NCBI GenBank assembly: GCA_031362805.1
Contig: JANLTG010000043.1
Span: forward strand, 5,395-69,394
Reading direction: 5' to 3'
DNA: 64,000 nt
Origin: a bacterium
GTDB taxonomy: Bacteria; Verrucomicrobiota; Verrucomicrobiia; Limisphaerales; RI-55
Shown here: piece after piece, positions 3,393-37,106 of the stretch
Numbering within the stretch: position 1 is the stretch's first letter
Layout of the letters: each line of letters opens with the position of its first letter
Position numbers and translations under genes: made by a program
The notes under the pieces: generated by a model
Seen by the model: the letters and a program-made list of their open reading frames with translations, nothing else
Told to the model about the DNA's origin: nothing
Databases searched by the model: none

Positions 3393-3999
3393 TAGTACGA
3401 AAAGATGCAAGTCAGTTGACCGACGACCGACGACCGACGACCGACGACAGAGGACAGAGGACAGAGGACAGAGGACCGAAGACGGTAGACAGAGGACTGT
3501 CAAAAAAGGAAAGCAGCAGCACTTAACCGCCCGCCTTCATTCCTTGAACTTCGTCGCGGCACGCAGATGAACACAGATGGACGCAGATGAGCGGCCGAGG
3601 GAGTAATGGAGAGTTGGAGAGTTGGAATCGGACGACAGAGGACGGTGGACGGGTAAAGGAGAAAAGGAGCGGGGGAGCGGGGGAGCGGGGCGAAAGAGAC
3701 AGCCAACATTCAACGTTCAATGTTCAACTACCAAGGTGAGGGCGAAGGAGGTCGGAGTCTTTACGCGAATCAACACGAATTAACGCCAAGCGGAATCAGC
3801 CACGAAAGGGCGCAAAGGGCGCACAGTCCGTTTAACAGGAACTAACGGAGGAAGCGGAGGACGGAGGACCGAAGACGGTAGGCTGAAGACGGTCAAAAGC
3901 AGAAAACAGAAAGCGGAAATCAGTGGACCGACGACGGATGACCGAGGACAAGGAACGCTCAACGTCCAATGGCCAATGTTCAAAGCAGATACTGCGGCG
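3393..3999. repeat. 607-bp spacer made entirely of mosaic repeat modules
   Basis: Contains the GAC-phased heptad array, a TTAACC-CAGATG-type module, GGAGAGTTGGAGAGTTGG, GGAGCGGGGGAGCGGGGGAGCGGGG and AACRTTC heptads. It also contains TTTACGCGAAT..CACGAAT, GCCACGAAAGGGCGCAAAGGGCGCACAG, GTTTAACAGGAACTAACGGAGG and a CAAAAGC heptad run. All of these recur in other spacers. Confidence 0.9.
3418..3501. repeat. 12 consecutive in-register GAC-N4 heptads
   Basis: Counted base by base: (GACCGAC)x4 (GACAGAG)x4 GACCGAA GACGGTA GACAGAG GACTGTC. Confidence 0.95.
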
Positions 4000-4980: not shown

Positions 4981-6150
4981 TCAGTTTTGACCCCGCCCAT
5001 GATCCGGCTTGAGGGCGTCATAGAGGTACTCCCCGACGACCAGGCTGGTGGGCCCGTTGTAATGGCCGTCGGAGTCGAAATTCAACTTCTCCCCTTTGCT
5101 GAAACGCTCCTGCACGGGTGGATTCAGATCGATGAACTTTATTCCTTCGACCTGGCAGTGCTTTCGGACTACCTCCACAAAAAACTCCGTGTCAATCAGG
5201 CTGGGATCCAGTTTGCCTTTGGCCGCGAGGTCGTTTACGTGGAACACCCCGGCCGGTGGACAGTAAACGCCGATGGGAGTGGCGTTCAGACTGCGGACGA
5301 ACTGCTCAAGCTCCTGGAGATTCTTCAGAAAATCTGCGGTTTTCTCCGGTTTATGAATACGGTGACTGGAGGAAAAGCGTTCCACGTAGAATGACAGCGG
5401 GGCGTCCTCCCCTTTGAAATACCGGCGCTGCGTGTTTCGAATGCCGTCGCGCAGGAAGCAGTAACCAGCCGAAGTGTTCGCCAAGAATTTTCTGAGCAAG
5501 GGGATTCTCCAATTGCTGCCCTCGAAGAGGTCTCCCCGGCGCACAACGACGTCGGGATGGTTGTCGTCATACCCACCAATCAGCAATGGGTTGAAAACGA
5601 TGATCACCGCCTGCGGTGGGTTGGTGACAGACGCCGTGAAGCTCTTGAACAGGGCGGCTTGCTCCTGCAGATGGTGCCCAGCCACCGCGAGGTTAACCAC
5701 GTCAATATTATGGTCTTTAAGTTTTTCGGCGACGATGCCCACGAATGTTTGTTCGTAGTCGAGTCCGTTGCCAAAAGCGTCGGATGCTCCGAGGATCACG
5801 TAATATGGCCGCCCTCCGATAGATTGAGGGCCGGGTTTGGGTGATCGGAAGCCAAGATCGGAAGTATGGACGCTAAATTTTAGAGTAGGCCAAAATACTT
5901 CCTTGGTCACGCTTTTCTTCAAGACGTACGAAATACCACCTTGTTCGAAGTAGCCTTCCAAGTTCCCCATGTGGTAGCGACCAGTGGCTCGCAGGCCAAC
6001 CTCCAGCGTAATAATGCAGAATAGTAACGTGACAAGCACAACGCCGATTTTGGAGAGGCCTCGCCGAATAGTCTGCAGCGAACCTGACGAGCGGACGGTT
6101 GAACCATTCTCCGGAATCATGTTCTGTAAGGATGGGATAATTGGGCTCAT
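4981..6150 (-). CDS. Membrane-anchored SGNH/GDSL-like hydrolase or acyl-esterase (AlgX/AlgJ-role candidate)
   Basis: 389 aa with an N-terminal TM helix (VVLVTLLFCIITLEVGL). The block-I-like motif is YVILGASDAFGNG and the C-terminal DSDGHYN resembles the SGNH Asp/His block. Confidence 0.5.
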   Translation of the reverse strand: MSPIIPSLQNMIPENGSTVRSSGSLQTIRRGLSKIGVVLVTLLFCIITLEVGLRATGRYHMGNLEGYFEQGGISYVLKKSVTKEVFWPTLKFSVHTSDLGFRSPKPGPQSIGGRPYYVILGASDAFGNGLDYEQTFVGIVAEKLKDHNIDVVNLAVAGHHLQEQAALFKSFTASVTNPPQAVIIVFNPLLIGGYDDNHPDVVVRRGDLFEGSNWRIPLLRKFLANTSAGYCFLRDGIRNTQRRYFKGEDAPLSFYVERFSSSHRIHKPEKTADFLKNLQELEQFVRSLNATPIGVYCPPAGVFHVNDLAAKGKLDPSLIDTEFFVEVVRKHCQVEGIKFIDLNPPVQERFSKGEKLNFDSDGHYNGPTSLVVGEYLYDALKPDHGRGQN

Positions 6151-14137: not shown

Positions 14138-15961
14138 TTAGGGCTGCTCGATGAGAGTTCTCTGGATCAATTCACTGGTGAGCAGAAGGTGGATTTCCGA
14201 CGTATAATTGCCGGTGCCGGTGACGTGCGCGTTCACCATTCTGGCAATGTTCCGGCCGTCCAGATACGGCCGCGAGAGCGTAAGCGGATCCAGCAACATT
14301 TCCTTCACAAAAGGAGCGAGTTGATGGCGATACCAATAGCGATAGTGGTAATACTTGTGCCGGCCGAGGAAGAGTTTTTCCAGATGCAGCGGGGCAAGGA
14401 TTCGGTCCACCTTTGCCAGCCATTGCGGCATGCCGTAATCGTAGGCGTATTCGGCCTTGAAGGTAAATTCCTCGAATTGTTCCGAAATTCTGCCTAGCAG
14501 CCCACGCCGCCCCAAAGGACCGCGATCCGTGGGAAAGGAAGCCAAAGCCGGATTCCCATCAGAAATAAGCCGCTCGGCGATGTGCCGGTTCAACCTGATC
14601 CCCTCGGGGGCCTGATAAGCGACTGCCACCAACTCGTTGTCGAGGTACGGAGAACGAACGGTGATCTGGGACTGCTCCAGAGCGAATCGCGCAAAATGGT
14701 GCCAGGGAACCTGCTTGAACGCGATGAAGGTTAGAGCGTCACACTGCCTTTCACCCTTATACAGCATCCGTGCGTTGTCCAGATGGGGTGTGAAATCGTT
14801 CGCAAACAGAGAACGGTCGAGCGATTTGGGCTTGAAAGCCACAAGTTGTCTCAGGATCTCGCTGCCATAGTTACCCGTCATCCGAATGGGGGCGATCTCC
14901 CTGCTTGCGATCCGGTTGGCAAATAGTGAGGCGGCACCGCTGGCGTCCATGCAACCGTCGGTGATGTAAACACATTGACTCGCGAGCGTGGGAAACTCCG
15001 AAAAGAAACTTCCACCCACAGTGAGCGTTCGATGCGACTGCCTGCAGACCGACGCGACACGGCGGGCAATCTTTGCATCCAAACATTCGCGAAAAACGCC
15101 CCGATGGCTATAGCAAGGAAGCTTGGAGCGTTCGAAGCGAGTCCATGCCATGATGATCCGCCCATCGAGACCGCCGGTAAGCGACATCGCGATCTGATCC
15201 GCGTTGCGGAAGTAGCGAGGCAGGATGCGGACAAAGGTTGCCTTAAGCTTTTCGTAGTAGTCGTCGGTCGAAAGTTTCTCCTGAGATTCCCAGGTTCCTT
15301 TGGAGAAATAGGTCTCCTTTTTAACCGGGCATCGGGGTTTGAAGGTCCAGATCGAACCCGGAGGCACCAAAGAGATGCCAGCGAAGAGCGTCCGGTTTTG
15401 CAGCACACAGCCCATGGTGAGCAACTCGCCCAGCTGCGGCATTTCGAGGCGCCGAAGGTGCGGGAGGATTTTCAGCAAAGCCTTGGCTTCGGACGCGAAG
15501 AAGAAGCCATCCTCATTTTCATGGAAATAAATTCGTCCCAATCCGTAACGATCATTGAACAAGACGACTTTGTTTTCACGAAGATCAATAAGTAGACCAC
15601 TGAAGGCGCCGTTCAATTTCGCCCAAAAACCGTCCCCTTGCTCTTCATAAAGATGCACCAAGTAACTGGCATTCGTGCTTTCAAAACTGTGTCCACCCGC
15701 CTTGAGGCGCTGGACTTCCGCGGGGTCGCCAAATTCCTCACCGGAAAAGATCAGGCACACGTCACGGGTTTCGTTCCAGCTGGGCAGGCAATCCGCAAAG
15801 GAGCCCGGCTGGCTAACCCAGGCAGCGGCGACATCCAACCCCTTTTCGACGAGCGTCCCAGAAGCGTAGGACGGCTCGTGCAACATGGAATTGCGCATCT
15901 CGCCGAGAGCCCCGCGGCGGCTGTCAGTGTTTGGGGAGATGAATCCGGCTATTCCAGGCAT
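14138..15961 (-). CDS. Asparagine synthase (AsnB)-family amidotransferase homolog lacking the N-terminal Cys nucleophile
   Basis: Track ORF is 14138..16054, and its 5' extension reads through the tRNA. The ATG at 15961 gives MPGIAGFISPN..., where AsnB enzymes have MCGI. An Ntn-like domain is followed by an AsnB synthetase-like domain (SLTGGLDGR, corresponding to the SGGLDS PP-loop). Confidence 0.75.
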   Translation of the reverse strand: MPGIAGFISPNTDSRRGALGEMRNSMLHEPSYASGTLVEKGLDVAAAWVSQPGSFADCLPSWNETRDVCLIFSGEEFGDPAEVQRLKAGGHSFESTNASYLVHLYEEQGDGFWAKLNGAFSGLLIDLRENKVVLFNDRYGLGRIYFHENEDGFFFASEAKALLKILPHLRRLEMPQLGELLTMGCVLQNRTLFAGISLVPPGSIWTFKPRCPVKKETYFSKGTWESQEKLSTDDYYEKLKATFVRILPRYFRNADQIAMSLTGGLDGRIIMAWTRFERSKLPCYSHRGVFRECLDAKIARRVASVCRQSHRTLTVGGSFFSEFPTLASQCVYITDGCMDASGAASLFANRIASREIAPIRMTGNYGSEILRQLVAFKPKSLDRSLFANDFTPHLDNARMLYKGERQCDALTFIAFKQVPWHHFARFALEQSQITVRSPYLDNELVAVAYQAPEGIRLNRHIAERLISDGNPALASFPTDRGPLGRRGLLGRISEQFEEFTFKAEYAYDYGMPQWLAKVDRILAPLHLEKLFLGRHKYYHYRYWYRHQLAPFVKEMLLDPLTLSRPYLDGRNIARMVNAHVTGTGNYTSEIHLLLTSELIQRTLIEQP

Positions 15962-15990
15962 GACGAATCGGGATGGAAACGTATGTGAAG

Positions 15991-16069
15991 TGGTGGAGCT
16001 GGGAAGGGCTTGAACCTCCATCGTCGCGCTGTTGCCAACGCGCCGCTCTGCCAATTGAGCTACAGCCCC
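15991..16069 (-). tRNA. tRNA-Ala(GGC)-like gene with non-canonical anticodon arm and T arm
   Basis: Minus-strand sequence: GGGGCTGTAGCTCAATTGGCAGAGCGGCGCGTTGGCAACAGCGCGACGATGGAGGTTCAAGCCCTTCCCAGCTCCACCA. It has a 7-bp acceptor stem with G3:U70, a canonical D arm, the loop TT-GGC-AA, TTCAAGC in the T loop, and an encoded ACCA end. At 79 nt it is 3 nt longer than canonical and needs a bulged A or an 8-nt anticodon loop, plus one extra C at the T-arm/acceptor junction. Folded by hand only. Confidence 0.6.
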
Positions 16070-16968
16070 TGAGATTGCAGACGCGACCGGTACCTATACA
16101 AAAACCAGCGAGCACGCAAGTTCGCATAAACGTCCTGCCAGTTGCCGGGAACGAGTTCCGTGAGCTTTCGGTGCAGCCCGAGCCCGAGCGCCAGTCGGCC
16201 GCGCCAGTTCAGGGGAACGTAGTACCGGGGAATTTCCACCAACTCAAACCCGTGATGTTTCTTGAAATCGCCCAAACTGCGTCGGCTCCAAACGCCATAC
16301 TGGAGCTGCACGATGCCCCGCTCGGCGCAGATTTCGATGGCCTTGGCGAGCAGCGCGTTGGTGGGAGACTTATCGCGATGAGCGACCAGCGAAATGATCT
16401 GCATAATGCTGGCAGATTTTCTATTCGGATGCAGGATCATCTTAATGAAACCGATAACTCCCCTTTCAAAAATGGCACTGATAAACAGGCTCCGATCCAT
16501 AAAGCTAGAATGGGCCCTCTTCAAGGTTTCGAAGTCTTTGCCGTAATGTTTTGACGGCCTGCCTTGAATCAGCGGCGACTCGTTGTAGATGGCATGAATG
16601 CCCCGGGCGAGTTCATCGCTGAATTCAACCGGTTGAATCGTGACCCCTTTCTTGCCCGCCTTTCGGACCACATTCCTCGTCTTATCGTTGACCTGCCGTT
16701 TCCACCAGTTTTCGTAGGTATCGATTCTCAGCACGGCGATTTTCTCCGGCAGGGATGGATAGCCGTATTCCCGGTCGGGCGTGGCTATTTGCTGCAGGAA
16801 CGAGAAGACGTCGACTCCAGAACCTTTCAAGTCTGATAGAAACATCCGGGGTTCTTCGACGTATTCGTGGTGCTCCGATCGCAATCGGGCAACGCGGGGA
16901 AAAATGCCCGAAACGGAGACGTCCTTGCCTTCGATGTTAATCCGGTTGCTTGGGGGTGCCAGAGTCAT
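16060..16968 (-). CDS. GNAT-fold FemAB/CelD-like (Acetyltransf_6-like) transferase, PEP-CTERM-locus type
   Basis: The ATG at 16968 gives MTLAPPSNRINIEGK.... The pattern KTRNVVRKAGKKGVTIQPVEF...IYNESP...GVIGFIKM...RDKSPTNALLAKAIEICAERGIVQLQYG...SLGDFKKHHGFELVEIPRYYVPL matches FemAB-related/CelD-like proteins of EPS loci. Its last 3 codons and stop lie inside the tRNA 5' end. Confidence 0.55.
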   Translation of the reverse strand: MTLAPPSNRINIEGKDVSVSGIFPRVARLRSEHHEYVEEPRMFLSDLKGSGVDVFSFLQQIATPDREYGYPSLPEKIAVLRIDTYENWWKRQVNDKTRNVVRKAGKKGVTIQPVEFSDELARGIHAIYNESPLIQGRPSKHYGKDFETLKRAHSSFMDRSLFISAIFERGVIGFIKMILHPNRKSASIMQIISLVAHRDKSPTNALLAKAIEICAERGIVQLQYGVWSRRSLGDFKKHHGFELVEIPRYYVPLNWRGRLALGLGLHRKLTELVPGNWQDVYANLRARWFLYRYRSRLQSQGL

Positions 16969-17008
16969 TGTCTTCAAAGCGAATGCGGGCCTTACCGTCA
17001 GACGGCGC

Positions 17009-20734: not shown

Positions 20735-21970
20735 TCACAGGGAAGCGTAGGCGGCCAACAGGTTCTTGCTGACCACCGACCACTGAAGCTCCTTTTCGAC
20801 ACGCTCACGGCCAAAGCGACCCATCTGCTCGCGGCGAATAGGGTCATCCATCAGCGCGGCGGTGGCCCCGGCAAAGGCCAGTTCGTCGTTGCAGGGGACA
20901 TATACCGCAGCGTCCTGCGCAGAGTAACGGGTCTCCCTGAGATCGAAGGTCACGATTGGCTTGCCGCAAGCCATGTATTCCATGACCTTGATCCACGTGG
21001 AGACGTCATTGAGCGGGCTCGACGGATCGGGGTCCATGCAAATGTCCGCCGCGGCCAAGTTCGCCTGAAGGTCCTCGTCGGAAATCCAGCCGGTCAGCTC
21101 GACGAATTTCTCCAACTTCAAAGTCCGGGTCAAGGCGCGCAAGTCCTCGAGCGAATCGCCACTGCCCATGATGACGCAGTAAAAATCTTCGCGCTTCAGA
21201 TCGTAGACGAGGTGTTTTAGCGAGCGGATGAGGTAATCCACGCCGTCCTGGGGATTCAGGCTGCCAATATAGACGAGAATGGTCTTGCCCAAGGCGCGCA
21301 GCCGCGGGGTCGGGGTGGCAATCTGCATGCGCTTCTGGTTGGGACCGTTCCGGACCACAAAAATGTGCTCGGGCTGGCGATGACCGCGCTGGATCTGGAT
21401 CGCCTTGTAAGACTCGTTGGTCGCGATGAGCACGTTGGCGAGCTTCAGATTGAACCATTCGATCCACTGCAACACGGTCGCGACGAAGTCGTGCGTCGCA
21501 CCATAGCGGGAGCGGTACAACTCCGGGCAGAGGTCGTGATGATCGAAGATGTATTTTTTCCCGAGCAACCGCCAAGGCAGGGCAGCGGCCCAAAGGGTAT
21601 CCGGAGGATTATGGGCATGAATCACGTCAAAGCCGTGCTTGCAGGCGACATAGATACTCATCAAAAAGCACGCGCTGGAGAAGTAAACGTATTCGCTGAC
21701 ATAGCCGACCAGCGACCGAAGCTTGAGGCTTAGGCGCTGGAAAAGCGTCGGGTTATCCGTCGGCGTCTTCTGAAAGAGTTCGAGGCGCGGCAACCGATAG
21801 ACCTGGACGCCCTTGACCACCTCAGAGCGGCTCTGGCCGGGCTTCCGCATGCCAATGACGGTCACGGAATACCCGGCTTCCGTCAGGGCATCGGCTTCGT
21901 TCTTGACCCGCGTATCGTTGGGATACGCGTTTTCGACGAACATCAGGACTCTACGGGCGGAAGCGTTCAT
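20735..21970 (-). CDS. Family 4 glycosyltransferase (group 1)
   Basis: 411 aa. RVLMFVENAYPNDTRVKNEADAL... is followed by the C-terminal EX7E-type region (ICMDPDPSSPLNDVSTWIKVMEYMACGKPIVTFDL). Confidence 0.8.
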   Translation of the reverse strand: MNASARRVLMFVENAYPNDTRVKNEADALTEAGYSVTVIGMRKPGQSRSEVVKGVQVYRLPRLELFQKTPTDNPTLFQRLSLKLRSLVGYVSEYVYFSSACFLMSIYVACKHGFDVIHAHNPPDTLWAAALPWRLLGKKYIFDHHDLCPELYRSRYGATHDFVATVLQWIEWFNLKLANVLIATNESYKAIQIQRGHRQPEHIFVVRNGPNQKRMQIATPTPRLRALGKTILVYIGSLNPQDGVDYLIRSLKHLVYDLKREDFYCVIMGSGDSLEDLRALTRTLKLEKFVELTGWISDEDLQANLAAADICMDPDPSSPLNDVSTWIKVMEYMACGKPIVTFDLRETRYSAQDAAVYVPCNDELAFAGATAALMDDPIRREQMGRFGRERVEKELQWSVVSKNLLAAYASL

Positions 21971-22216
21971 AAGAAAGGACCCAGCGATTCAAAAGCATGC
22001 ACCAATCTCGTGCCACCGAATAGTCCAAGACAGGCTGGAATAACTATGCACCGGAGTTCACGCCGAGACCGCGGTTTCGCGGCGACCCACTCACAGGAAG
22101 CAGCCGTACGGCCATTCAGATATCTGCGAGGCCCAAGCATTTGACCTCACGCAGTCTTCCGCTAACGCGACTCCCGCAGGCGAGATCAAAGCAAAGTCAA
22201 TCGGCCTTTGGTCGCG

Positions 22217-23323
22217 CTAAAATCCGAGGCAGACTGGCGCGCTAAACTCGCGAGAGGATAGCCGGGGACCCTTGGTTGGTGACGTAGTTTTCAGGCCCGG
22301 CGCAGCCTTTCGAAAATGAGCCGCAACAGACCGGGGTAGGATACGGGCAAACTGATCGTCGAAAGTGGCGGTGACCCACACCAGGAATTCGCGGTACAAA
22401 TCCGCTGAATACTCGCCAGTTGGAACCGTTCCATCAAACGCCATGTAGTCCGGATGCACATTCATCAAGGCCATACCGCCCTGTGATGCAATCCAAGTCA
22501 GTTTGCGCTTCCAAAGTTCATTTGTTGGTTCCTTCAAAAGCAGGAACAGCGTGAAATCCTGCGGGAGAGTGTAGGGGAGTTCGAGGTAGCCGGCCTCCAA
22601 AAGCGGAGAGCTGAAAGCAGAAAGCGGAGATGCAGAATCCGAGGACGAGGACGTGCCTGAAAGCGGAAAGCGGAAAGCTGAAAGCGGAAATGTTGAATCC
22701 GAGGACGAGGACGATTGGCGGGGGACCCAGAAGGGGAAGATGGTGCCGACGCCGTCGGGTTGGGGCTCGAAAGGATCCGTGTCGAAGGTGGAGGCATCGT
22801 AGGCGATATCCAAACCATGCAACCATTCGAGGTTGCGCAACATGAAACCGGAGCGAAAACCAACAGCCCCCCATTCTTTGAGCCGGCGATTAATCTCCCG
22901 GGTGCTGGCCTGGAATCTTTCGTGCGACGAGTAAAGTTTGCCGTCGTGGCGGTGATCGTGAACGCCCACTTCAAAGCCGTTAGAGGTGAGCCAACTGCGC
23001 AACTCAGCTGGGACTTGGTATTCGCCGTCAGGTATGAAATTAAACGAGGAACGAAACCCCAAGGACATCTCCAGTTCGGCCAGGTGCTTCACGCGGTCGA
23101 GGCCTTTCTGGCTTTCGACGTCGTGAGTGAGGACTAGGGCGAAGTCCTTGCCGTCGGGCCAACCAAGCCAGCCAACGGGTGGCCGTTCAGAACCGGGCAA
23201 GATCGGCCAGGTCGCGGACACCCGAGGCCGCTTGCGCAGTGCAAACCAACGCCGAATCCCGAGGCGCAGGCGCCAGGGAAGGAGCGGCTTTACTACGTAG
23301 TAGAAGCGGGTGAAAGGAGACAT
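22217..23323 (-). CDS. Polysaccharide deacetylase-like protein (PEP-CTERM-locus type) carrying a 39-codon in-frame repeat insertion
   Basis: The ATG is at 23323 (the track uses a TTG at 23329). FALVLTHDVESQKGL...FEVGVHDHRHDG... indicates a deacetylase barrel, and the C-terminal half resumes after the insertion (GYLELPYTLPQDF...MALMNVHPDY). Confidence 0.65.
   Translation of the reverse strand: MSPFTRFYYVVKPLLPWRLRLGIRRWFALRKRPRVSATWPILPGSERPPVGWLGWPDGKDFALVLTHDVESQKGLDRVKHLAELEMSLGFRSSFNFIPDGEYQVPAELRSWLTSNGFEVGVHDHRHDGKLYSSHERFQASTREINRRLKEWGAVGFRSGFMLRNLEWLHGLDIAYDASTFDTDPFEPQPDGVGTIFPFWVPRQSSSSSDSTFPLSAFRFPLSGTSSSSDSASPLSAFSSPLLEAGYLELPYTLPQDFTLFLLLKEPTNELWKRKLTWIASQGGMALMNVHPDYMAFDGTVPTGEYSADLYREFLVWVTATFDDQFARILPRSVAAHFRKAAPGLKTTSPTKGPRLSSREFSAPVCLGF
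22598..22714. repeat. Two tandem copies of the purine-heptad module inserted in-frame in a CDS
   Basis: Plus strand: CAAAAGCGGAGAGCTGAAAGCAGAAAGCGGAGATGCAGAATCCGAGGACGAGGACG followed by ..CTGAAAGCGGAAAGCGGAAAGCTGAAAGCGGAAATGTTGAATCCGAGGACGAGGACG. Length is 117 nt, which is 39 codons. It encodes SSSSSDSTFPLSAFRFPLSG-TSSSSDSASPLSAFSSPLL. Confidence 0.85.
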
Positions 23324-23419
23324 GTTCAAAAGCAGAAAACTGAAAGCTGAAAGCAGAAATGAACTGCTGACCGGAGGCTGTTCAAAAGCAGAAAACTGAA
23401 AGCGGAAATTAAATGCGGT

Positions 23420-23791
23420 TCAGTTTCCTGAATTACCTTTGGTGTTCTTAACCATGGTTACGAAGATGGCGATCAGCTCGCCGGCCTCGGCCAAGAGACC
23501 TTCCAACGCTGGGTCGGCAATGGCGCAATCATCCCGCAGCAACTCGAGCCACAGCTGCGACTCGTCCGCCTCTTGGGCTGCGCCTTCCAGCTTGGAGCAG
23601 AATTCGGCAGCGGAGCGGGCTCGTCCCGCCTCCCGAACTTGAGCGGCAACGGAAGTGCCGGAGCGCAAGAGTTGACGGCCAAGCACTCTGACCTCTTCGC
23701 GTTCCCTCGGGAGCGCCACGAAAAACCGAATGACCCCCGAGGCAAACCTCTTTGTTCGGTCCCGAAACTCGTGGGATAGGCGGCCGGACAT
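23420..23791 (-). CDS. Four-helix-bundle protein (23S rRNA intervening-sequence protein / Avd-like family)
   Basis: MSGRLSHEFRDRTKRFASGVIRFFVALPREREEVRVLGRQLLRSGTSVAAQVREAGRARSAAEFCSKLEGAAQEADESQLWLELL... is the classic signature of this family. The ATG at 23791 directly abuts a repeat module. Confidence 0.85.
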   Translation of the reverse strand: MSGRLSHEFRDRTKRFASGVIRFFVALPREREEVRVLGRQLLRSGTSVAAQVREAGRARSAAEFCSKLEGAAQEADESQLWLELLRDDCAIADPALEGLLAEAGELIAIFVTMVKNTKGNSGN

Positions 23792-24075
23792 AATCAAAAG
23801 CAGAAAACGGAAAACTGAAAACGGAAAGTGGAAATGTTAAACCGCAGATGAGCAGGAGAAGGAGAAAAGGAGCGGTGGAGTGAGCGAGGCGGACAAAACA
23901 TCCAACATCCAACATCCAACGTTCAACTTCGAGGGCAAGGCGCGCCCGGAGGATCGCGCCCCACCTGGAGTGAGGTTAACGTCCGTCGCGAGGCGCGCCG
24001 GATGGCAGCCGGGGCGGCCGCGCTCCCCGGTTCAAAAGCGGAAATGCCGACGGTCATAGACCGCCGCTACAGGGG
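23792..24075. repeat. Mosaic repeat spacer
   Basis: Contains CAAAAGC heptads, TTAAACCGCAGATG, AACATCC/AACGTTC heptads and GGCGCGCCCGGAGGATCGCGCCCCACCTGG (identical to the copy at 31058-31087). It also contains the GCGCGCCGGATGGCAGCCG..GCGCTCCCCGGTTCAAAAGCGG element. Confidence 0.85.
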
Positions 24076-25362
24076 CTAGGCTTTGTGGAGCTGGCCGGGG
24101 TTGGTGGGGAGGCCGTGCATCGCGTTGCGGGTGTCGACGATGAGCTTAGCCCACTCAGCGAGCTGGGTGTAGTTCACGTTGGCGTGCGCGGTCGAAATCA
24201 GGACGAGATCATAGCTGGAGATCGTGGCCTGGTTCCAGTCAATGGACTTAACGCCCGCCCACTGCGGATGCTCGCGCGTGGGCCGAATGACGGGCACATA
24301 GGGATCGTGATAGGCAACATCGGCACCGCGTTGCTTGAGCAACTCGAGCAAGTGGTAGCTCGGCGATTCGCGATCGTCATCGACGTTCGCCTTGTACGAA
24401 AGGCCAAGGATCAAGATGCGACTGCCGTTCACGGGCTTCCGGACGCCGTTCAACGTCTCGGCCACGCGATTGATCACATGCTCGGGCATGTGGGTGTTGA
24501 TCTCGCCGGCGAGCTCGATGAAACGGGTGTTCTGGCCATACTCGCGCGCTTTCCAGGTCAGGTAAAAGGGATCGATGGGGATGCAGTGTCCGCCGAGGCC
24601 CGGTCCGGGATAGAAGGCCATGTAACCGAAGGGTTTGGTCTTGGCGGCGTTGATGACTTCCCAAATATCGATGCCCATGGCGGCGTAGACGACCTTGAGC
24701 TCGTTGACGAGGGCGATGTTGACGCCACGGAAGATGTTCTCAAGCAGCTTGGTGGATTCGGCGGCGCGGCAGGACGAGACGGGGACAATGGTCTTAATGG
24801 CGAGGGAATAGAGCGCCTTCGCCTTTTCCAAGCAGGCGGGAGTGTAGCCGCCGACGACCTTGGGGATGATGGCGACCTTGCTGTCGGGATTGCCGGGGTC
24901 TTCGCGTTCGGGCGAAAAGGCGAGATGGAAATCAGTGCCGGCTTTCAGGCTCGAGCCGGATTCGAGCACGGCCCGGAGATCTTCATCGGTGGTGCCGGGG
25001 TAGGTGGTGGACTCAAGAACAACCAGAATGCCCTGGTGCAAATGCGGGGCAATGCTGCGGCCGGTATCGAGGATGTAAGAGATGTCGGGTTCGCGGTTTT
25101 TGTTGAGCGGCGTGGGGACGCAGATGATGACGGCATCGACTTCCTTGACGCGGGCGAAATCGGCGGAGGCGGTGAAGCGACCGGCGGAGACCTGTTCCTG
25201 CATGGACTCGCTCGAGATGTGCTTGATGTAGGACTGGGCAGTGTTGCAGGCGGTGACTTTTTTCTGATCGATGTCGAGGCCGAGGACCTTGGCGCCGGAG
25301 CGGGCGAACTGGAGGCAGAGCGGGAGACCGACGTAACCGAGGCCGACGATGGCGATTTTCAT
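24076..25362 (-). CDS. UDP-N-acetyl-hexosamine 6-dehydrogenase (WbpA/WecC/TviB family)
   Basis: 428 aa. MKIAIVGLGYVGLPLCLQFARSGAKVLGLDIDQKKV... and ...GPGLGGHCIPIDPFYL are typical of the WbpA/TviB branch of nucleotide-sugar dehydrogenases. Confidence 0.8.
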   Translation of the reverse strand: MKIAIVGLGYVGLPLCLQFARSGAKVLGLDIDQKKVTACNTAQSYIKHISSESMQEQVSAGRFTASADFARVKEVDAVIICVPTPLNKNREPDISYILDTGRSIAPHLHQGILVVLESTTYPGTTDEDLRAVLESGSSLKAGTDFHLAFSPEREDPGNPDSKVAIIPKVVGGYTPACLEKAKALYSLAIKTIVPVSSCRAAESTKLLENIFRGVNIALVNELKVVYAAMGIDIWEVINAAKTKPFGYMAFYPGPGLGGHCIPIDPFYLTWKAREYGQNTRFIELAGEINTHMPEHVINRVAETLNGVRKPVNGSRILILGLSYKANVDDDRESPSYHLLELLKQRGADVAYHDPYVPVIRPTREHPQWAGVKSIDWNQATISSYDLVLISTAHANVNYTQLAEWAKLIVDTRNAMHGLPTNPGQLHKA

Positions 25363-25892
25363 AAAAGTAGAAAGCAGAAAGCAGAAAGCAGAAAGCGGAA
25401 ATTGTGGGCGGAGCTTTTACGCGAATTTCGCGAATTCACACGAATACAAAGCTGAAGTGGCCGCGAAAAGGCACAAAGGACACAAAAGCGGAGACAAAAA
25501 ATCGAACATCGAACACTCAACTTTCAACGTTCAACTACCAGGGCGAGGACGAGGATGACGGTGGACGGTGGACGGTGGACGGTGGACGGTGGACGGTGGA
25601 CGGTGGATCCCTCTCAATAACTGAAAGCGGAAAGCGGAGAGCTGAAATTGTGGGCGGAGTTTTTACGCGAATTTCGCGAATTAATACGAATCAACGCCAA
25701 GCTGAACTAGCCGCGAAAGAGCACATAAGGCGCACAGTCTGTTTAACAGGAGCTAACGGAGTGAGGGTCGAAAACGGGAAAACTTGAAGACACGAAAACG
25801 AGTGCCGGGCCGAAGACCGGCGCTCCCCACCTGCTGACGAGGCCTGGAGTTTCAGTTGATTTGGGACTCGTGTAACTCGTCCCTCCGGATGG
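25363..25892. repeat. Mosaic repeat spacer with a ~246-bp internal duplication
   Basis: The block (AGAAAGC)n-GGAAATTGTGGGCGGAG-TTTTACGCGAATTTCGCGAATT.A.ACGAAT...GCCGCGAAA.GCACA.AAGG occurs at about 25366-25490 and again at about 25621-25745. A (GACGGTG)7 array lies between the copies, and a 125-bp element lies at the right end. Confidence 0.9.
25557..25607. repeat. Perfect tandem heptamer (GACGGTG)x7
   Basis: Counted base by base: 25557-25605 holds seven exact units, plus a partial GA. Confidence 0.95.
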
Positions 25893-28097: not shown

Positions 28098-28973
28098 AGC
28101 GGTAGAGTTCAGAGATCCGACATCAAAGGCAGTTTAACCACTAATGCACACTAATCGATACGAATCTATGGGAGAGGGACAGGTGACAGGGGGTGAGTGT
28201 TCAGCCGAGGAAGGAGACCCGGTGAGGAGGCGAAGGAAAACAGCGAACGCTCAACGTTCAACGTTCAACATTCAACATTCAACGTTCAACCACCAAGGCG
28301 AGGCCGAAGGAGTTCGGAGTTTTTACGCGAATTTCGCGAATTAACACGAATCAACGCCAAGCTGAATTAGCCGCGAAAGAGCACATAAGGCGCAAAGATC
28401 GGTTAACAGGAGCGTGCGAAGGGGGACAAAACATCGAACATTCAACATTCAACATTCAAATGCCGAGGAGGAGGACGTCTTCAAAAGCAGAGAGCTGAGA
28501 CTTTTAACCGCAGATGGACGCAGATGGGGACTGCCGGCTGGCAGCGCGGCAGCACTTTGCAAGCGAGGCCGAGGGGGCCAATGAAGGAGCGGAAATGGAA
28601 ACCACGAATCAACACTAACTGACACGAATTCTTAAACCGCAGATGGACGCGGAGGAGCGGACAGGACTGGAAAACAAGAAAACTTGAAGACACGAAAACG
28701 AGTGCCAGGCCGAAGACCGGCGCTCCCCACCGGCTGACGAAGCCCGGAGTTTAAGTTGATTGGGGACTCGTGGAACTCGTCCCTCCGGATGATCGAGGAC
28801 GATTGTCAAAAACAGAAAGCGGAAAGCGGAGAGCTGAAATGTTTAACGGCAGATGAACACAGATGGACGCAGATGGGGACTGCCGGCTGGCAGCGCGGCA
28901 GCACTTTGCAGGCGAGGCCGAGGCGGCCAATGAAGGAGCGGAAATGGAAACCAAGAATTGACGCCAAGCTGAA
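28098..28973. repeat. 876-bp mosaic repeat spacer with a ~349-bp higher-order duplication
   Basis: An 8-unit AAC-heptad array spans 28239-28294. TTTACGCGAATTTCGCGAATTAACACGAAT begins at 28321. CAGATGGGGACTGCCGGCTGGCAGCGCGGCAGCACTTTGCA.GCGAGGCCGAGG.GGCCAATGAAGGAGCGGAAATGGAAACCA occurs at 28521 and again at 28870. The second copy of the 125-bp element spans 28668-28792. Confidence 0.9.
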
Positions 28974-30107: not shown

Positions 30108-31168
30108 AGGATAAAGCGGAAAGCAGAGGACCGAAGACCGACGACGGAAAACAGCGAACGCTCAACGCTCAACGTTCAACTTTCCACATTCAACCGCCAA
30201 GGCGACGCGAAGGTGACCGGAGTTTTTACGCGAATTGCACGAATTCACACGAATGCCGGAGAGATCAATCGACCGACGGTTTTCCAACGCCACAAGACGA
30301 GGCGGTCTCGGAGAGACGCGCCCCACCGTATTCAAACACAGATGGTCGCAGATGAGCGGGTGAGTGGAGACGAACGAAAACAGCGAACGCTCAACGTTCA
30401 ACGTTCAACGTTCAAAGCAGTTATTTACGAAGACACAAAGAACGCGGAGCGAGGAACAAGGATCGAAAACGGGAAAACTTGAAGACGTGAAAACGAGTGC
30501 CGGTTCGGAGACCGGCGCTCCCCAAGCGAGGACGACGACGAAATGGGAACCAAAGTTTTACGCGAATTGCACGAATTCACACGAATGCCGGAGAGATCAA
30601 TCGGCCGACGGGATTTCCAACGCCATAAGACGAGGCGGTCTCGGAGAGAACCGCCCCACCGTGTTTAACCGCGGATGCTTCAAAAACAGAAAACGGAGAG
30701 CAGCGAGTCGAAATTTTAACCACAGATGAACACAGACGAACACAGATGGACGCAGATGAGCGGGTGAAGGAGTGTTGGAGTGAGTGGCGAGGACCGACGA
30801 CGGAGGACAAGGAACATTCAACGTTCAACGCTCAACATCCAACCGCCAGGTGAGGGAGAAGGTGATCAGAGTTTCTACGCGAATTAACACGAATTAGCGC
30901 AAATAAGTGCTGAGTCTGTTACCACAGTGGCGCGAAGCTTTTAACCACGGAGGTAAGAAGAACACGAAGTCGGTTGGCCACGAAAGGGCGCAAAGAACGC
31001 AAAGTCCGGTTAACAGGAGCGTGCGAAGGGGGACAAAACATCGTACATCGAAGGCTAGGCGCGCCCGGAGGATCGCGCCCCACCTGGAACAAGGCCAGGA
31101 ACATCGAACATTCAACGCTCAAGGTCCACTATCCAGGTCGCAGGGAAGATAGTGGCAATCAACGGGAG
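30108..31168. repeat. 1.06-kb mosaic repeat spacer with a ~332-bp duplication
   Basis: A 10-unit xAC heptad array spans 30129-30198. The segment TTTTACGCGAATTGCACGAATTCACACGAATGCCGGAGAGATCAATCG.CCGACGG..TTTCCAACGCCA.AAGACGAGGCGGTCTCGGAGAGA..CGCCCCACCGT, about 125 nt long, occurs at 30225 and again at 30557. A third, partial copy of the 125-bp element spans 30463-30525. Decamer ACRCAGAYGR repeats span 30725-30760. Confidence 0.9.
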
Positions 31169-31708: not shown

Positions 31709-32893
31709 TCAAGACGCCGAAAAAGCTGAGGGCTGAACCGGCGAGGGTGCCGAACCAGCCAGGGGAACTGCTGCGGGTGCAGGCTCCACGGGCGTGGGGC
31801 ATTCCGTGAGACGCGGGGCTCCCGAGGCCGCGAGGCGGTGATGCAGGCCGGCCGGGGCAGAGGCTTCGGTGGACAAGAATGGAATGGCGGCGCCGTTCTG
31901 ACGGAGGGAAATGGATGCGGCCTCGAGAATGCGAACCAACTGCAGACCCTCCAAGCCGCTGGAGATCGGTTTGCGACCCTCGTTGATGCAATCGAGGAAG
32001 TGCTGGCATTCCACTTTCAACGGTTCCTCCTGCTTGATGTAGGGGACGTGAAGATCGCCGTAATGATACGAATACTGAAATTCAGCGAAGGTGTCGTAGT
32101 GCGGCGGGCGATCGACGCGGGCATCGTAGATCTTGATTTTTTCAAGCGGCTGAAGGTCGTCATAGACAATCATGCGCTTGGTGCCGACGATCGTCATCTC
32201 GCGGACCTTGCGCGGGTCCAACCAACTGTTTTGAACCGTCGCAAACCGGCCATTGCGGAAGGAAAGGGAGAGGTTGATGATATCCTCAATGCCCACCGTG
32301 ACATTGGCGTTGCCCTGGCAGTTTACGGAGAGCGGATGCTCCTCCAGGATGTAAAGAATGATCGAGAGGTCGTGCGGAGCGAGATCCCACATGACGTTGA
32401 TATCCTTCTGAAAGAGGCCGAGATTCAAACGCCGGGAGCTGATGTAACAAAGGTCGCCAATGTCGCCGCGGTCGACGATCTCCTTGATCTTCCGGACGGG
32501 GGACGAATAAAGGAACGTGTGGCCGATCATGACCACGAGCCCCTTCCGCGCAGCGATCTCGTTGAGCTCCTCACATTGCGCGGCGGAACTGGCCATCGGC
32601 TTTTCAATGAAGACATGCTTGCCTGCCATCAGGACCTGGCGAGCCATCGGGTAATGAAACCGGACGGACGTCGCGACGACGATGGCATCCAGCTCCGGGT
32701 CCTCGATCAAATCCTCGAGCCGGCTCGTGGTTTGGACCGCGGGATACAGCTCCTTCATGTGGCGGAGCCGGGCTTCACTGAGATCGCAAACCGTCTTAAG
32801 ACGGCACCCCCCCAGGTTATTGAAGTTGCGGATCAGGTTGGGACCCCAATAGCCGCAGCCAACCACGCCGATGTTGATCTTCTTGTGAGTCAT
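31709..32893 (-). CDS. Gfo/Idh/MocA-family NAD-dependent sugar oxidoreductase (WbpB-like) with a low-complexity C-terminal tail
   Basis: The N-terminus reads MTHKKINIGVVGCGYWGPNLIRNF...DAIVVATSVRFHYPMARQVLMAGKHVFIEKPMA. The last ~60 aa (…PAGLHHRLAASGAPRLTECPTPVEPAPAAVPLAGSAPSPVQPSAFSAS) are P/A-rich and end in repeat-like sequence. Confidence 0.75.
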   Translation of the reverse strand: MTHKKINIGVVGCGYWGPNLIRNFNNLGGCRLKTVCDLSEARLRHMKELYPAVQTTSRLEDLIEDPELDAIVVATSVRFHYPMARQVLMAGKHVFIEKPMASSAAQCEELNEIAARKGLVVMIGHTFLYSSPVRKIKEIVDRGDIGDLCYISSRRLNLGLFQKDINVMWDLAPHDLSIILYILEEHPLSVNCQGNANVTVGIEDIINLSLSFRNGRFATVQNSWLDPRKVREMTIVGTKRMIVYDDLQPLEKIKIYDARVDRPPHYDTFAEFQYSYHYGDLHVPYIKQEEPLKVECQHFLDCINEGRKPISSGLEGLQLVRILEAASISLRQNGAAIPFLSTEASAPAGLHHRLAASGAPRLTECPTPVEPAPAAVPLAGSAPSPVQPSAFSAS

Positions 32894-36753: not shown

Positions 36754-37106
36754 GCGGGGATGCGCGCAACATCGAACATCCAACATCGAACATCCAACAT
36801 CGAACATTCAACGTCGAACATTCAACGTCCAAGCAGCAGGCCGGGTCCCGAAGCTTTACGCGAATTTGCGCAAATTGACACGAATTGGATTAGCCACGAA
36901 AGAGCACAAAGGACGCGAAGGACGGAAAGCGGAGAATTTTAACCACAGATGGAGCGGGTAAGGGAGCAAAGGAGCAAAGGGGCGCTGGAGCAGTGGAGTG
37001 TTGGAGTGTTGGAGTGAGTGCGAGGCGAAACATCGAACATCGAACACTGAACGTCCGGGCGCTGCCAAGCGCTGCTGGCCGATCTGGAGATCAGCGTTCC
37101 ACGCTA
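36754..37106. repeat. Mosaic repeat spacer between convergent genes
   Basis: Nine AAC heptads span 36768-36830 (AACATCG AACATCC ...). The spacer also contains TTTACGCGAATTTGCGCAAATTGACACGAAT, GCCACGAAAGAGCACAAAGGACGCGAAGG, TTTTAACCACAGATGG and GGAGTGTTGGAGTGTTGGAGTGAG, then AACATCG heptads again. Orientation matches the EPS-locus copies. Confidence 0.9.

Follow-up and report, generated by a model that had tools for sequence, protein, structure and literature searches.

A repeat insert in a polysaccharide-deacetylase-like gene

The stretch of DNA analyzed here (64,000 nt, hereafter the window; positions 5,395 to 69,394 of contig JANLTG010000043.1, Verrucomicrobiota assembly GCA_031362805.1) holds a polysaccharide-synthesis cluster in which one minus-strand gene, predicted to encode a CE4-fold polysaccharide-deacetylase-like protein, carries 117 nt of repeat DNA within its coding sequence. 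The gene lies in the open reading frame (ORF) 22217..23329, with ATG 23323 almost certainly the true start because homologues align from there, and neighboring genes encode a GT4 glycosyltransferase, a UDP-sugar dehydrogenase-like and a Wzc-like protein. As a preliminary description of this DNA had read it, the insert (22598-22714) amounts to 39 whole codons in frame and mid-gene, on which the sequence, the frame and the 60-nt tandem units delimited by Tandem Repeats Finder (TRF) agree; its translation is SSSSSDSTFPLSAFRFPLSGTSSSSDSASPLSAFSSPLL, preceded by ...TIFPFWVPRQ and followed by EAGYLELPYTLPQD. The gene and its parts are as follows.

22217..23323, minus strand: host gene, 368 aa, predicted CE4-fold polysaccharide-deacetylase-like protein of the polysaccharide-synthesis cluster; start ATG 23323.
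22715..22744, minus strand: upstream loop anchor TIFPFWVPRQ, with beta-strand FPFW and family-invariant I195, F196 and P197.
22598..22714, minus strand: in-frame repeat insert, encoding residues 204-242 (of 368); sense strand pyrimidine-rich and stop-free.
22598..22632, minus strand: unit 1, GAAAGCN-type module CAAAAGCGGAGAGCTGAAAGCAGAAAGCGGAGATG with canonical ends; 19/19 identity to 1449 and 1621; repeat family D1.
22633..22659, minus strand: second part of unit 1, CAGAATC + CGAGGACGAGGACG (two GAGGACG heptads) + TGCCTG spacer; its core is also present at 25544 and 28463.
22660..22692, minus strand: unit 2, GAAAGCN-type module AAAGCGGAAAGCGGAAAGCTGAAAGCGGAAATG; 26/27 and 30/33 nt to the modules at 25621 and 25370; TRF period 7, 4.6 copies, 92%.
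22693..22714, minus strand: second part of unit 2, TTGAATC + CGAGGACGAGGACG + A; the module may reach ~22718 (ATTG); CGAGGACGATTG also at 28795-28806.
22574..22597, minus strand: downstream loop anchor EAGYLELP, a beta-strand with family-invariant G245, E248 and P250.

The insert consists of two tandem 60-nt units (TRF: period 60 nt, 1.9 copies, 88% matches, 22600-22713). Each has a GAAAGCN run (TRF arrays 22600-22637 and 22659-22690) that starts (C)AAAAGC and ends GA(A/G)ATG, followed by NNGAATC and CGAGGACGAGGACG, and unit 1 alone carries the additional terminal spacer TGCCTG. These heptanucleotide (heptad) tracts comprise only 4-5 mixed units of 7 nt, with 71-92% matches (TRF). The 19-mer GAATCCGAGGACGAGGACG follows each GAAAGCN run (22635-22653 and 22695-22713) and occurs nowhere else in the window, even with up to three mismatches allowed; taken whole, it thus does not belong to the standard intergenic modules. 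At 89% identity over 54 nt, and with this private 19-mer in common, the two units resemble each other more than either resembles any other copy, which points to a local 60-nt tandem duplication; this duplication and the 57-nt remainder are both multiples of three. The boundaries are uncertain by ~4 nt, because the 5' junction CAATCGTCCTCG (gene sense) is also present in an intergenic mosaic at 28795-28806. In an independent Logan assembly of SRR20217213 the gene and insert are identical, and the insert is thus not the quirk of one assembler.

Two local details were considered and set aside. The native coding sequence CTGCTTTTGAA (22533-22546), which encodes LLLK within the conserved TLFLLLKE motif, matches a module terminus; at a distance of 57 nt from the junction, this is probably a coincidence that does not account for the insertion point. 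A possible TTG start codon within the gene, following the module end (GCTTTTG/GAG), was judged to be of no consequence, because the C-terminal fragment of 125 aa that it would give could not fold into the barrel.

Relation of the insert to intergenic heptad repeats

Period-7 repeats reach 4.9 per kb in the window, vs. 0.0-0.8 per kb for periods 5, 6, 8 and 9, and form a class of dispersed heptanucleotide tandem repeats, with 25 period-7 arrays outside the deacetylase-like gene. GAAAGCN runs alone account for 36 matches (0.1 expected), all on the plus strand. Comparing the insert with the rest of the window by blastn, CAAAAGCGGAGAGCTGAAA was identical (19/19) to copies at 1449 and 1621, longer matches were found at 25621 (26/27), 28815 (24/25) and 25370 (30/33 nt), and every other intergenic module of the window also matched, more weakly. 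The intergenic copies start T(T/C)CAAAAGC and finish GAAATG(TT), and the termini TCAAAAGC and GAAATG(TT) are common to the insert. By these shared stretches of 19-33 nt and termini, the in-gene copy is a member of the intergenic GAAAGCN sequence family, which bears out the earlier view that the insert is intergenic-type repeat DNA.

The GAGGACG part likewise has intergenic counterparts: CGAGGACGAGGA at 25544, running into a GACGGTG x7 array; CCGAGGAGGAGGACGT at 28463, 4 bases ahead of a CAAAAGCAGAGAGCTGA module; and CGAGGACGATTG at 28795, immediately ahead of another module. A GAGGACG run beside a GAAAGCN run is therefore a normal trait of the intergenic mosaics. In sequence, the insert resembles a block copied out of a GAGGACG/GAAAGCN mosaic of this kind.

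The intergenic copies are themselves mosaics in which heptad number and neighbors vary, not unit-length elements. Neither terminal inverted repeats nor a palindrome were found in the insert and its surroundings, and the junctions GGCCTC/CAAAAGC and GAGGACG/ATTGGCG have no direct repeat in common, i.e., no target-site duplication. The sense-strand RNA of the insert folds no better than shuffled sequences (z +0.25), Rfam gave no match on the insert region at E<=1, and a promoter/terminator scan of 21900-24100 returned nothing above shuffles. The modules had been proposed to be “mobile or expandable”; local tandem duplication and the sequence shared with intergenic copies agree with this, but mobility has neither terminal inverted repeats nor a target-site duplication in its favor. 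An origin like that of a diversity-generating retroelement (copies differing at A positions) was rejected, as only the degenerate seventh base varies and the other adenines are unchanged; no reverse transcriptase was noticed, although no systematic search for one was made. The suggestion that the tail of the WbpB-like protein arose in a similar way fared poorly: this tail (31712-31729, minus strand; ...PSPVQPSAFSAS and stop, i.e., PSAFSAS; DNA ccggttcagccctcagctttttcggcgtcttga) is at best a decayed heptad trace, in which no module can be recognized.

Predicted fold of the host protein

The host family counts >8000 homologues, mostly unnamed (a few are labeled PgdA/CDA1-family deacetylase by JGI), many of them fused to a GT4 domain, and their named source organisms are mostly Verrucomicrobiota. 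Neither Pfam (including PF01522) nor NCBIfam yielded a family for the protein at thresholds as loose as E<=10, whether the insert was kept or removed, and a profile of 110 homologues found no PDB sequence match. An AlphaFold2 model based on these 110 homologues (mean predicted local distance difference test, pLDDT, 84; predicted template modeling score, pTM, 0.84) has the distorted (beta/alpha) barrel fold of CE4 enzymes. Foldseek matched it to the putative polysaccharide deacetylases 3rxz and 3s6o (E 3e-10 to 5e-8), and also to ArnD (8t0j), 2c71, PdaC, VcCDA and other CE4 structures, with overall E-values of 3e-10 to 1e-3 and target-normalized template modeling scores of 0.57-0.64. The name “deacetylase” given in the preliminary description thus holds for the modeled fold only, and not at the level of Pfam, NCBIfam or PDB sequence matches. 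The family-invariant residues H67, (D68), E70, H122, H126, H290 and D292 lie in the strings THDVE, HDxxHDG and HPDY, of which the first two resemble CE4 motifs 1 (TFDD) and 2 (H[ST]xxH), an equivalence judged by eye.

The window protein retains every one of the 44 family-invariant residues, before and after the insert alike, in line with the claim that the C-terminal half is preserved. Mapping the insert on the structure model, as had been proposed, places it in a predicted disordered coil (residues ~204-242; pLDDT 44-51, vs. >85 for the flanks) between strand 198-201 (FPFW) and strand 245-248 (YLEL). From this model the gene looks intact, with the insert appearing as an extruded disordered loop.

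A family-wide hypervariable loop

In alignments, the FPFW ... GYxELP segment is the sole large length-variable region within the domain. Counted from the residue after W, this loop measures 6-97 aa (median 22.5) among the 110 homologues and 7-78 aa in 80 species-representative genomes. Loops of 7 aa belong to Nitrospira/Nitrospirales, Acidobacteria, Bacteroidota and a few Verrucomicrobia, whose loci are essentially heptad-free, and loops reach up to 97 aa in Verrucomicrobiota. Without its 39 codons the window protein would read VPRQEA here, six residues, i.e., the minimal loop state. Checking orthologues for an ancestral Ser-rich linker, as recommended beforehand, gave no contradiction of an insertion: the 7-aa loops of heptad-free loci are unrelated to the insert. 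The insert does lie in the middle of the gene, but not at an arbitrary site: it is in the hypervariable loop of the family, which many lineages have filled with their own heptads. Given this recurrent filling, the immediate ancestor may already have had a variable loop.

The long loops are heptad-periodic in their DNA (lag-7 identity 0.4-0.69, vs. ~0.25 at other lags), and at six loci a comparison of TRF units found the loop heptads to be the same as intergenic units of the same locus (L numbers designate homologous loci):

Window: TTTCCGC
L002: GGAAGAC and TCCGTCC
L003: GAGGTCA
L004: TCAGAGG
L021: TTCAGCC
L025: TCCGTCC

Loop length was correlated with the density of period-7 repeats in the flanks (Spearman 0.46, p 7e-5), and not significantly with period-6 or period-8 repeats. 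In a census of period-7 arrays of at least 3 copies across 81 loci (1.40 Mb), 23 of the 95 arrays, from 17 loci, were located within the loop, i.e., in 0.44% of the DNA (0.4 expected, binomial p 3e-33), an enrichment inflated by the fact that the arrays themselves lengthen the loop and that the loci are phylogenetically related. When homologues were ordered by neighbor-joining on the loop-masked domain, heptad-rich loops were scattered amid short-loop relatives, which suggests repeated gain, loss or turnover. Another 12 arrays were in frame within other proteins of the 81 loci; exonization of heptad DNA is thus not unique to the loop, yet far rarer elsewhere.

Among such proteins, in-frame heptad arrays were seen in a Wzc-like linker (L002 2975-3408), a GH76/88-like protein (L004 18413-18537), N-terminal linkers of NodB-type deacetylases (L060 13488-13520, L077 13894-13917) and Alg13/14-like proteins (L070 9380-9404, 10680-10710). 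At two loci (L003 5498-5720, L002 5087-5153) the loop is made of a purine-rich heptad array and, behind it, an array close to its reverse complement (GAGGTCA x16, TCTGACC x11), and the coding loop of such orthologues could form a long DNA or mRNA hairpin; the insert of the window is without this self-complementarity.

Frame maintenance and possible loop exchange

In 87 of 87 loops (81 from the loci, 6 from metagenome contigs), the reading frame is the same before and after the loop, in keeping with the proposed tolerance for multiples of three. Loop length is also identical within the pairs L031/L053, L035/L039, L037/L044 and L009/L017 and within the L060/L085-87 quartet, and these equal lengths among close relatives argue against rapid copy-number switching. 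In the homologues P0024 and P0072 of two strains (L088 and L089), the gene DNA is ~97% identical, but the loop tract of ~100 nt (VPRPTGGSINHQRSTVNSSSR vs. VPRPFANQESQFTRHVSAK; L088 ~985-1085) matches at 18/44 aligned bases, and the neighboring GY(I/V)E codons differ too. The pattern suggests that recombination at the conserved flanks exchanged the loop as a cassette. The upstream-flank 26-mer GGCACCATCTTCCCCTTCTGGGTCCC (22715-22740; GTIFPFWVP) is present without mismatch in six metagenome contigs from other lineages (L082-L087), probably through a shared preference for C-ending codons, and gives recombination a homologous stretch at the very edge of the loop.

Origin of the insert

We favor, with a probability of roughly 0.75, an origin by capture of intergenic-type repeat DNA, tandemly duplicated in a permissive loop of a CE4-fold enzyme, with selection keeping the in-frame, stop-free versions. 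On this reading the insert is tolerated at a recurrent hot spot and the gene is not broken; going by the model, it would be translated as a 39-residue disordered loop, rich in Ser, Pro, Leu and Phe, that joins two barrel strands. The heptad DNA may have entered or grown via copy-choice/template switching, ectopic recombination with intergenic modules (two of them lie only 600-700 nt off, in the leader of this very gene) or slippage, and the 60-nt tandem duplication would have come after acquisition. Selection would then have retained only lengths divisible by three with the pyrimidine-rich strand as sense. That strand must be sense because the purine strand gives TGA when the seventh base is T, while its complement is stop-free in all frames. 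A loop that tolerates almost any sequence would act as a sink for heptad DNA, and its conserved flanks would permit whole-loop swaps by recombination.

Besides the inflated array enrichment, several observations weigh against this origin by capture and tolerance. Array density per nt is higher in the loop than in intergenic DNA, which makes pure tolerance insufficient and suggests that a site-specific mechanism or benefit may exist. Many Verrucomicrobiota have a stable loop of ~20 aa without heptads, and the event may have replaced or lengthened a loop that was already there instead of entering a minimal one. In the collections searched there was no close relative by which to date the event: the protein database holds nothing between 62% and 100% amino acid identity to the window protein, a cluster look-up gave no further members, a scan of genome contigs did not include the window's own species, and a metagenome scan with the flanking 26-mer returned other lineages only, with no allele of this species.

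A benefit of this kind is the essence of one alternative, in which the long disordered loop is a positively selected flexible linker or lid (for substrate gating or spacing) and heptad DNA simply handy material. The loop is bordered by the most conserved motifs of the family (FDTDPFEPQP...FPFW and GYxELPYTLPQD), and both its array density and the persistence of long loops across many lineages would fit. We nevertheless consider this unlikely: loop sequence, length and composition are not conserved, many functional-looking orthologues manage with 6-7 residues, and long loops are confined to heptad-bearing genomes, which points to supply and not demand. The same arrays could instead act as a contingency switch, with slipped-strand mispairing by one heptad shifting the frame and toggling the polysaccharide-modifying enzyme together with any fused downstream glycosyltransferase. 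A unit of 7 nt is not divisible by 3, the gene is part of a surface-polysaccharide cluster, arrays recur in the loop of 17/81 loci, and heptanucleotide simple sequence repeats drive phase variation in H. influenzae, in one case mid-ORF (PMC2651432). Such a switch is nonetheless improbable here, given arrays that are short, imperfect and made of 4-5 mixed units, the uniform frame of all 87 loops, the equal loop lengths within close pairs and the quartet, two identical assemblies of the window organism, and a protein search that returned no truncated or frameshifted homologue.

The remaining explanations deny that repeat DNA was captured, that it arrived by these routes, or that the gene is real. 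An ancestral Ser-rich linker, resembling the modules through convergent low complexity or later homogenization, is very improbable and already largely refuted: although nearly all Verrucomicrobial homologues have a variable loop here, with SAF-type peptides at its C-terminal end in several lineages (L021, L056, P0033), the insert matches intergenic copies over 19-33 nt and shares their specific termini, the closest homologues (P0002 and P0003, 61-62% identity) have unrelated loops, repeat-free genomes have 7-aa loops, and the 89% identity of the in-gene units indicates recent duplication. Many dispersed copies with conserved ends could also recall a non-autonomous transposable element, such as a miniature inverted-repeat transposable element (MITE) or a Rickettsia palindromic element (RPE), for which in-frame insertions are known in Rickettsia (PMC10969869). 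Transposition is unlikely, however, because terminal inverted repeats, target-site duplication and unit-length copies are all absent; with an unremarkable RNA fold, no palindrome, copies that are mosaics of variable heptad number and no transposase nearby, we hold a mobile module of this type to be highly improbable. It is scarcely credible, finally, that the locus is an assembly chimera, a pseudogene or two genes with a fortuitously open spacer. The pyrimidine heptad strand is stop-free in every frame, which makes the open frame alone weak evidence, and overlapping ORFs in other frames are present, but the two assemblies agree, the 117 nt leave the C-terminal half in frame and every invariant residue present, the strands on either side form one predicted barrel domain, and the homologues are single polypeptides.

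Returning to the capture of repeat DNA, it is tempting to extend it to a family-wide cassette site with DNA-conserved brackets, at which Verrucomicrobiota repeatedly capture, expand and swap lineage-specific heptad DNA, possibly with a function, an idea that we consider unlikely. Such a site would be a natural route turning an undescribed class of 5'-leader or intergenic heptad modules into protein sequence, and its loop might tune an active-site lid or serve as a slow frameshift switch for surface-polysaccharide modification.

On our favored reading, the locus is a clean multi-lineage example of non-coding simple-repeat DNA turning protein-coding in bacteria, with one permissive loop filled independently by each genome's own heptads, always in frame and in the stop-free orientation. 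It is relevant to the origin of disordered low-complexity protein segments and to indel-tolerant sites in enzyme evolution, as well as to the annotation of Verrucomicrobial metagenome-assembled genomes, where heptad repeats yield spurious ORFs and odd inserts. A further implication is that soil Verrucomicrobiota have an abundant system of heptad repeats, some modules of which abut start codons that lack a Shine-Dalgarno sequence.

Comparison with known repeat systems

RPEs reportedly lie in frame within host ORFs, as Ogata et al. are said to have described in 2000. Intragenic MITE-type elements, including the in-frame RPEs of Rickettsia, have been reviewed (PMC10969869). The insert is like RPE, MITE, ERIC (enterobacterial repetitive intergenic consensus) and BOX elements in being a dispersed intergenic-type repeat located in frame in a conserved enzyme, where it adds an extra peptide at a tolerant position and leaves a host protein that is seemingly still functional. 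RPEs, however, are unit-length palindromes of ~100-150 bp with a conserved encoded peptide, found in many unrelated genes, whereas the present element is a non-palindromic heptad mosaic of variable length, without a conserved peptide, that fills one loop of one family across lineages.

Heptameric repeats are over-represented in bacteria and little studied (PMC4692102). The TAACTGA direct repeats of Beggiatoaceae, Cyanobacteria and Bacteroidetes occur just upstream of start codons and sometimes within ORFs in stop-free orientation (PMC4679880). Like these and other heptamer systems (cyanobacterial short tandemly repeated repetitive sequences, STRR; G-rich heptamers, Xanthomonas/Nostoc, PMC4692102), the repeats described here are over-represented tandem 7-nt units, mostly intergenic and strand-biased, which often end a few nt before start codons lacking a Shine-Dalgarno sequence and have occasional stop-free copies in ORFs. 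They differ in their units (GAAAGCN, GAGGACG, GACGGTG, AACGTTC, etc.), in the mixing of these units in mosaics and in the phylum, Verrucomicrobiota. Moreover, the intragenic TAACTGA copies reported sit mainly at the ends of proteins or within hypothetical ORFs, whereas those here recur in an internal loop of a conserved enzyme. The heptanucleotide contingency loci of Haemophilus influenzae (PMC2651432; PMC3315296) share with the present locus a tandem repeat of non-multiple-of-three unit in a surface-polysaccharide-modification gene, but they have long perfect tracts and frame changes between strains, in contrast to the short imperfect tracts and the absence of any out-of-frame allele among the 87 loops.

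The host protein itself is akin to CE4/NodB-homology deacetylases in its predicted distorted beta/alpha barrel and perhaps in the strings THDVE and HDxxHDG, which to the eye resemble motifs 1 and 2, and unlike them in giving no PF01522 hit and belonging to an uncharacterized, often GT4-fused family. CE4 specificity is shaped by variable loops. In the literature searched we found no description of these repeats in Verrucomicrobia, which, coverage being incomplete, is a weak argument for novelty. The exonization of repeat DNA in frame was already known; the case is set apart by the mosaic type of the element, the phylum and, above all, the recurrent use of one internal enzyme loop in many lineages, which is the new part.

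Other repeats and genes of the window

The leader modules of the host gene, the other heptad families and a dispersed non-heptad element are located as follows.

23325..23410, minus strand: two GAAAGCN modules in the same orientation as the insert, forming the immediate 5' leader of the host gene; the first stops 3 nt before ATG 23323.
3418-3497, 25557-25607, 28246-28290, 28437-28459, 30386-30415 and 36768-36826: sites of other heptad families.
25402-25480, 25648-25735, 28315-28400 and 3745-3830: copies of a ~75-nt non-heptad element.

The other heptad families comprise GACCGAC/GACAGAG, GACGGTG x7.3, AACGTTC, AACATTC and AACATCG, and heptad arrays thin out past ~37 kb, where gene orientation turns mixed. 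The GAAAGCN modules at 23325-23361, 23793-23838, 25363-25401 and 21986-21996 end GCUUUUG(A) in gene sense, at or shortly before an ATG. The end precedes that of the deacetylase-like gene (23323) by 3 nt, that of a PF05635 gene (23791) by 3 nt and that of the GT4 gene (21970) by 19 nt, and it directly adjoins the ATG of the UDP-sugar dehydrogenase-like gene (25362). No Shine-Dalgarno sequence is visible at these start codons. By analogy with what has been proposed for TAACTGA repeats, such modules look like pyrimidine-rich 5' leaders.

The ~75-nt element (GGAGTTTTTACGCGAATTTCGCGAATTAACACGAATCAACGCCAAGCTGAA...GCCGCGAAAG.GCAC) lies beside heptad arrays in several intergenic mosaics and gives spurious ORF peptides, e.g., REFREFTRI. 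A further element of ~115 nt has two near-identical copies (25775-25890 and 28675-28790), each with a minus-strand GC hairpin (GCCGGTCTTCGGCCCGGC) followed by a T-rich run; located 3' of minus-strand stop codons, it is probably a repeated terminator cassette.

Whole-window comparison with Rfam at the gathering threshold returned a single feature, a tRNA gene (15994-16069, minus strand, 45 bits) inside the polysaccharide cluster that overlaps the ends of two long, mechanically called ORFs (14138..16054 and 16060..16977). The small PF05635 gene (23S rRNA-intervening-sequence-type four-helix bundle; 23420-23791, minus strand, E 3e-13) lies between the deacetylase-like and dehydrogenase genes, with heptad modules flanking it on both sides.

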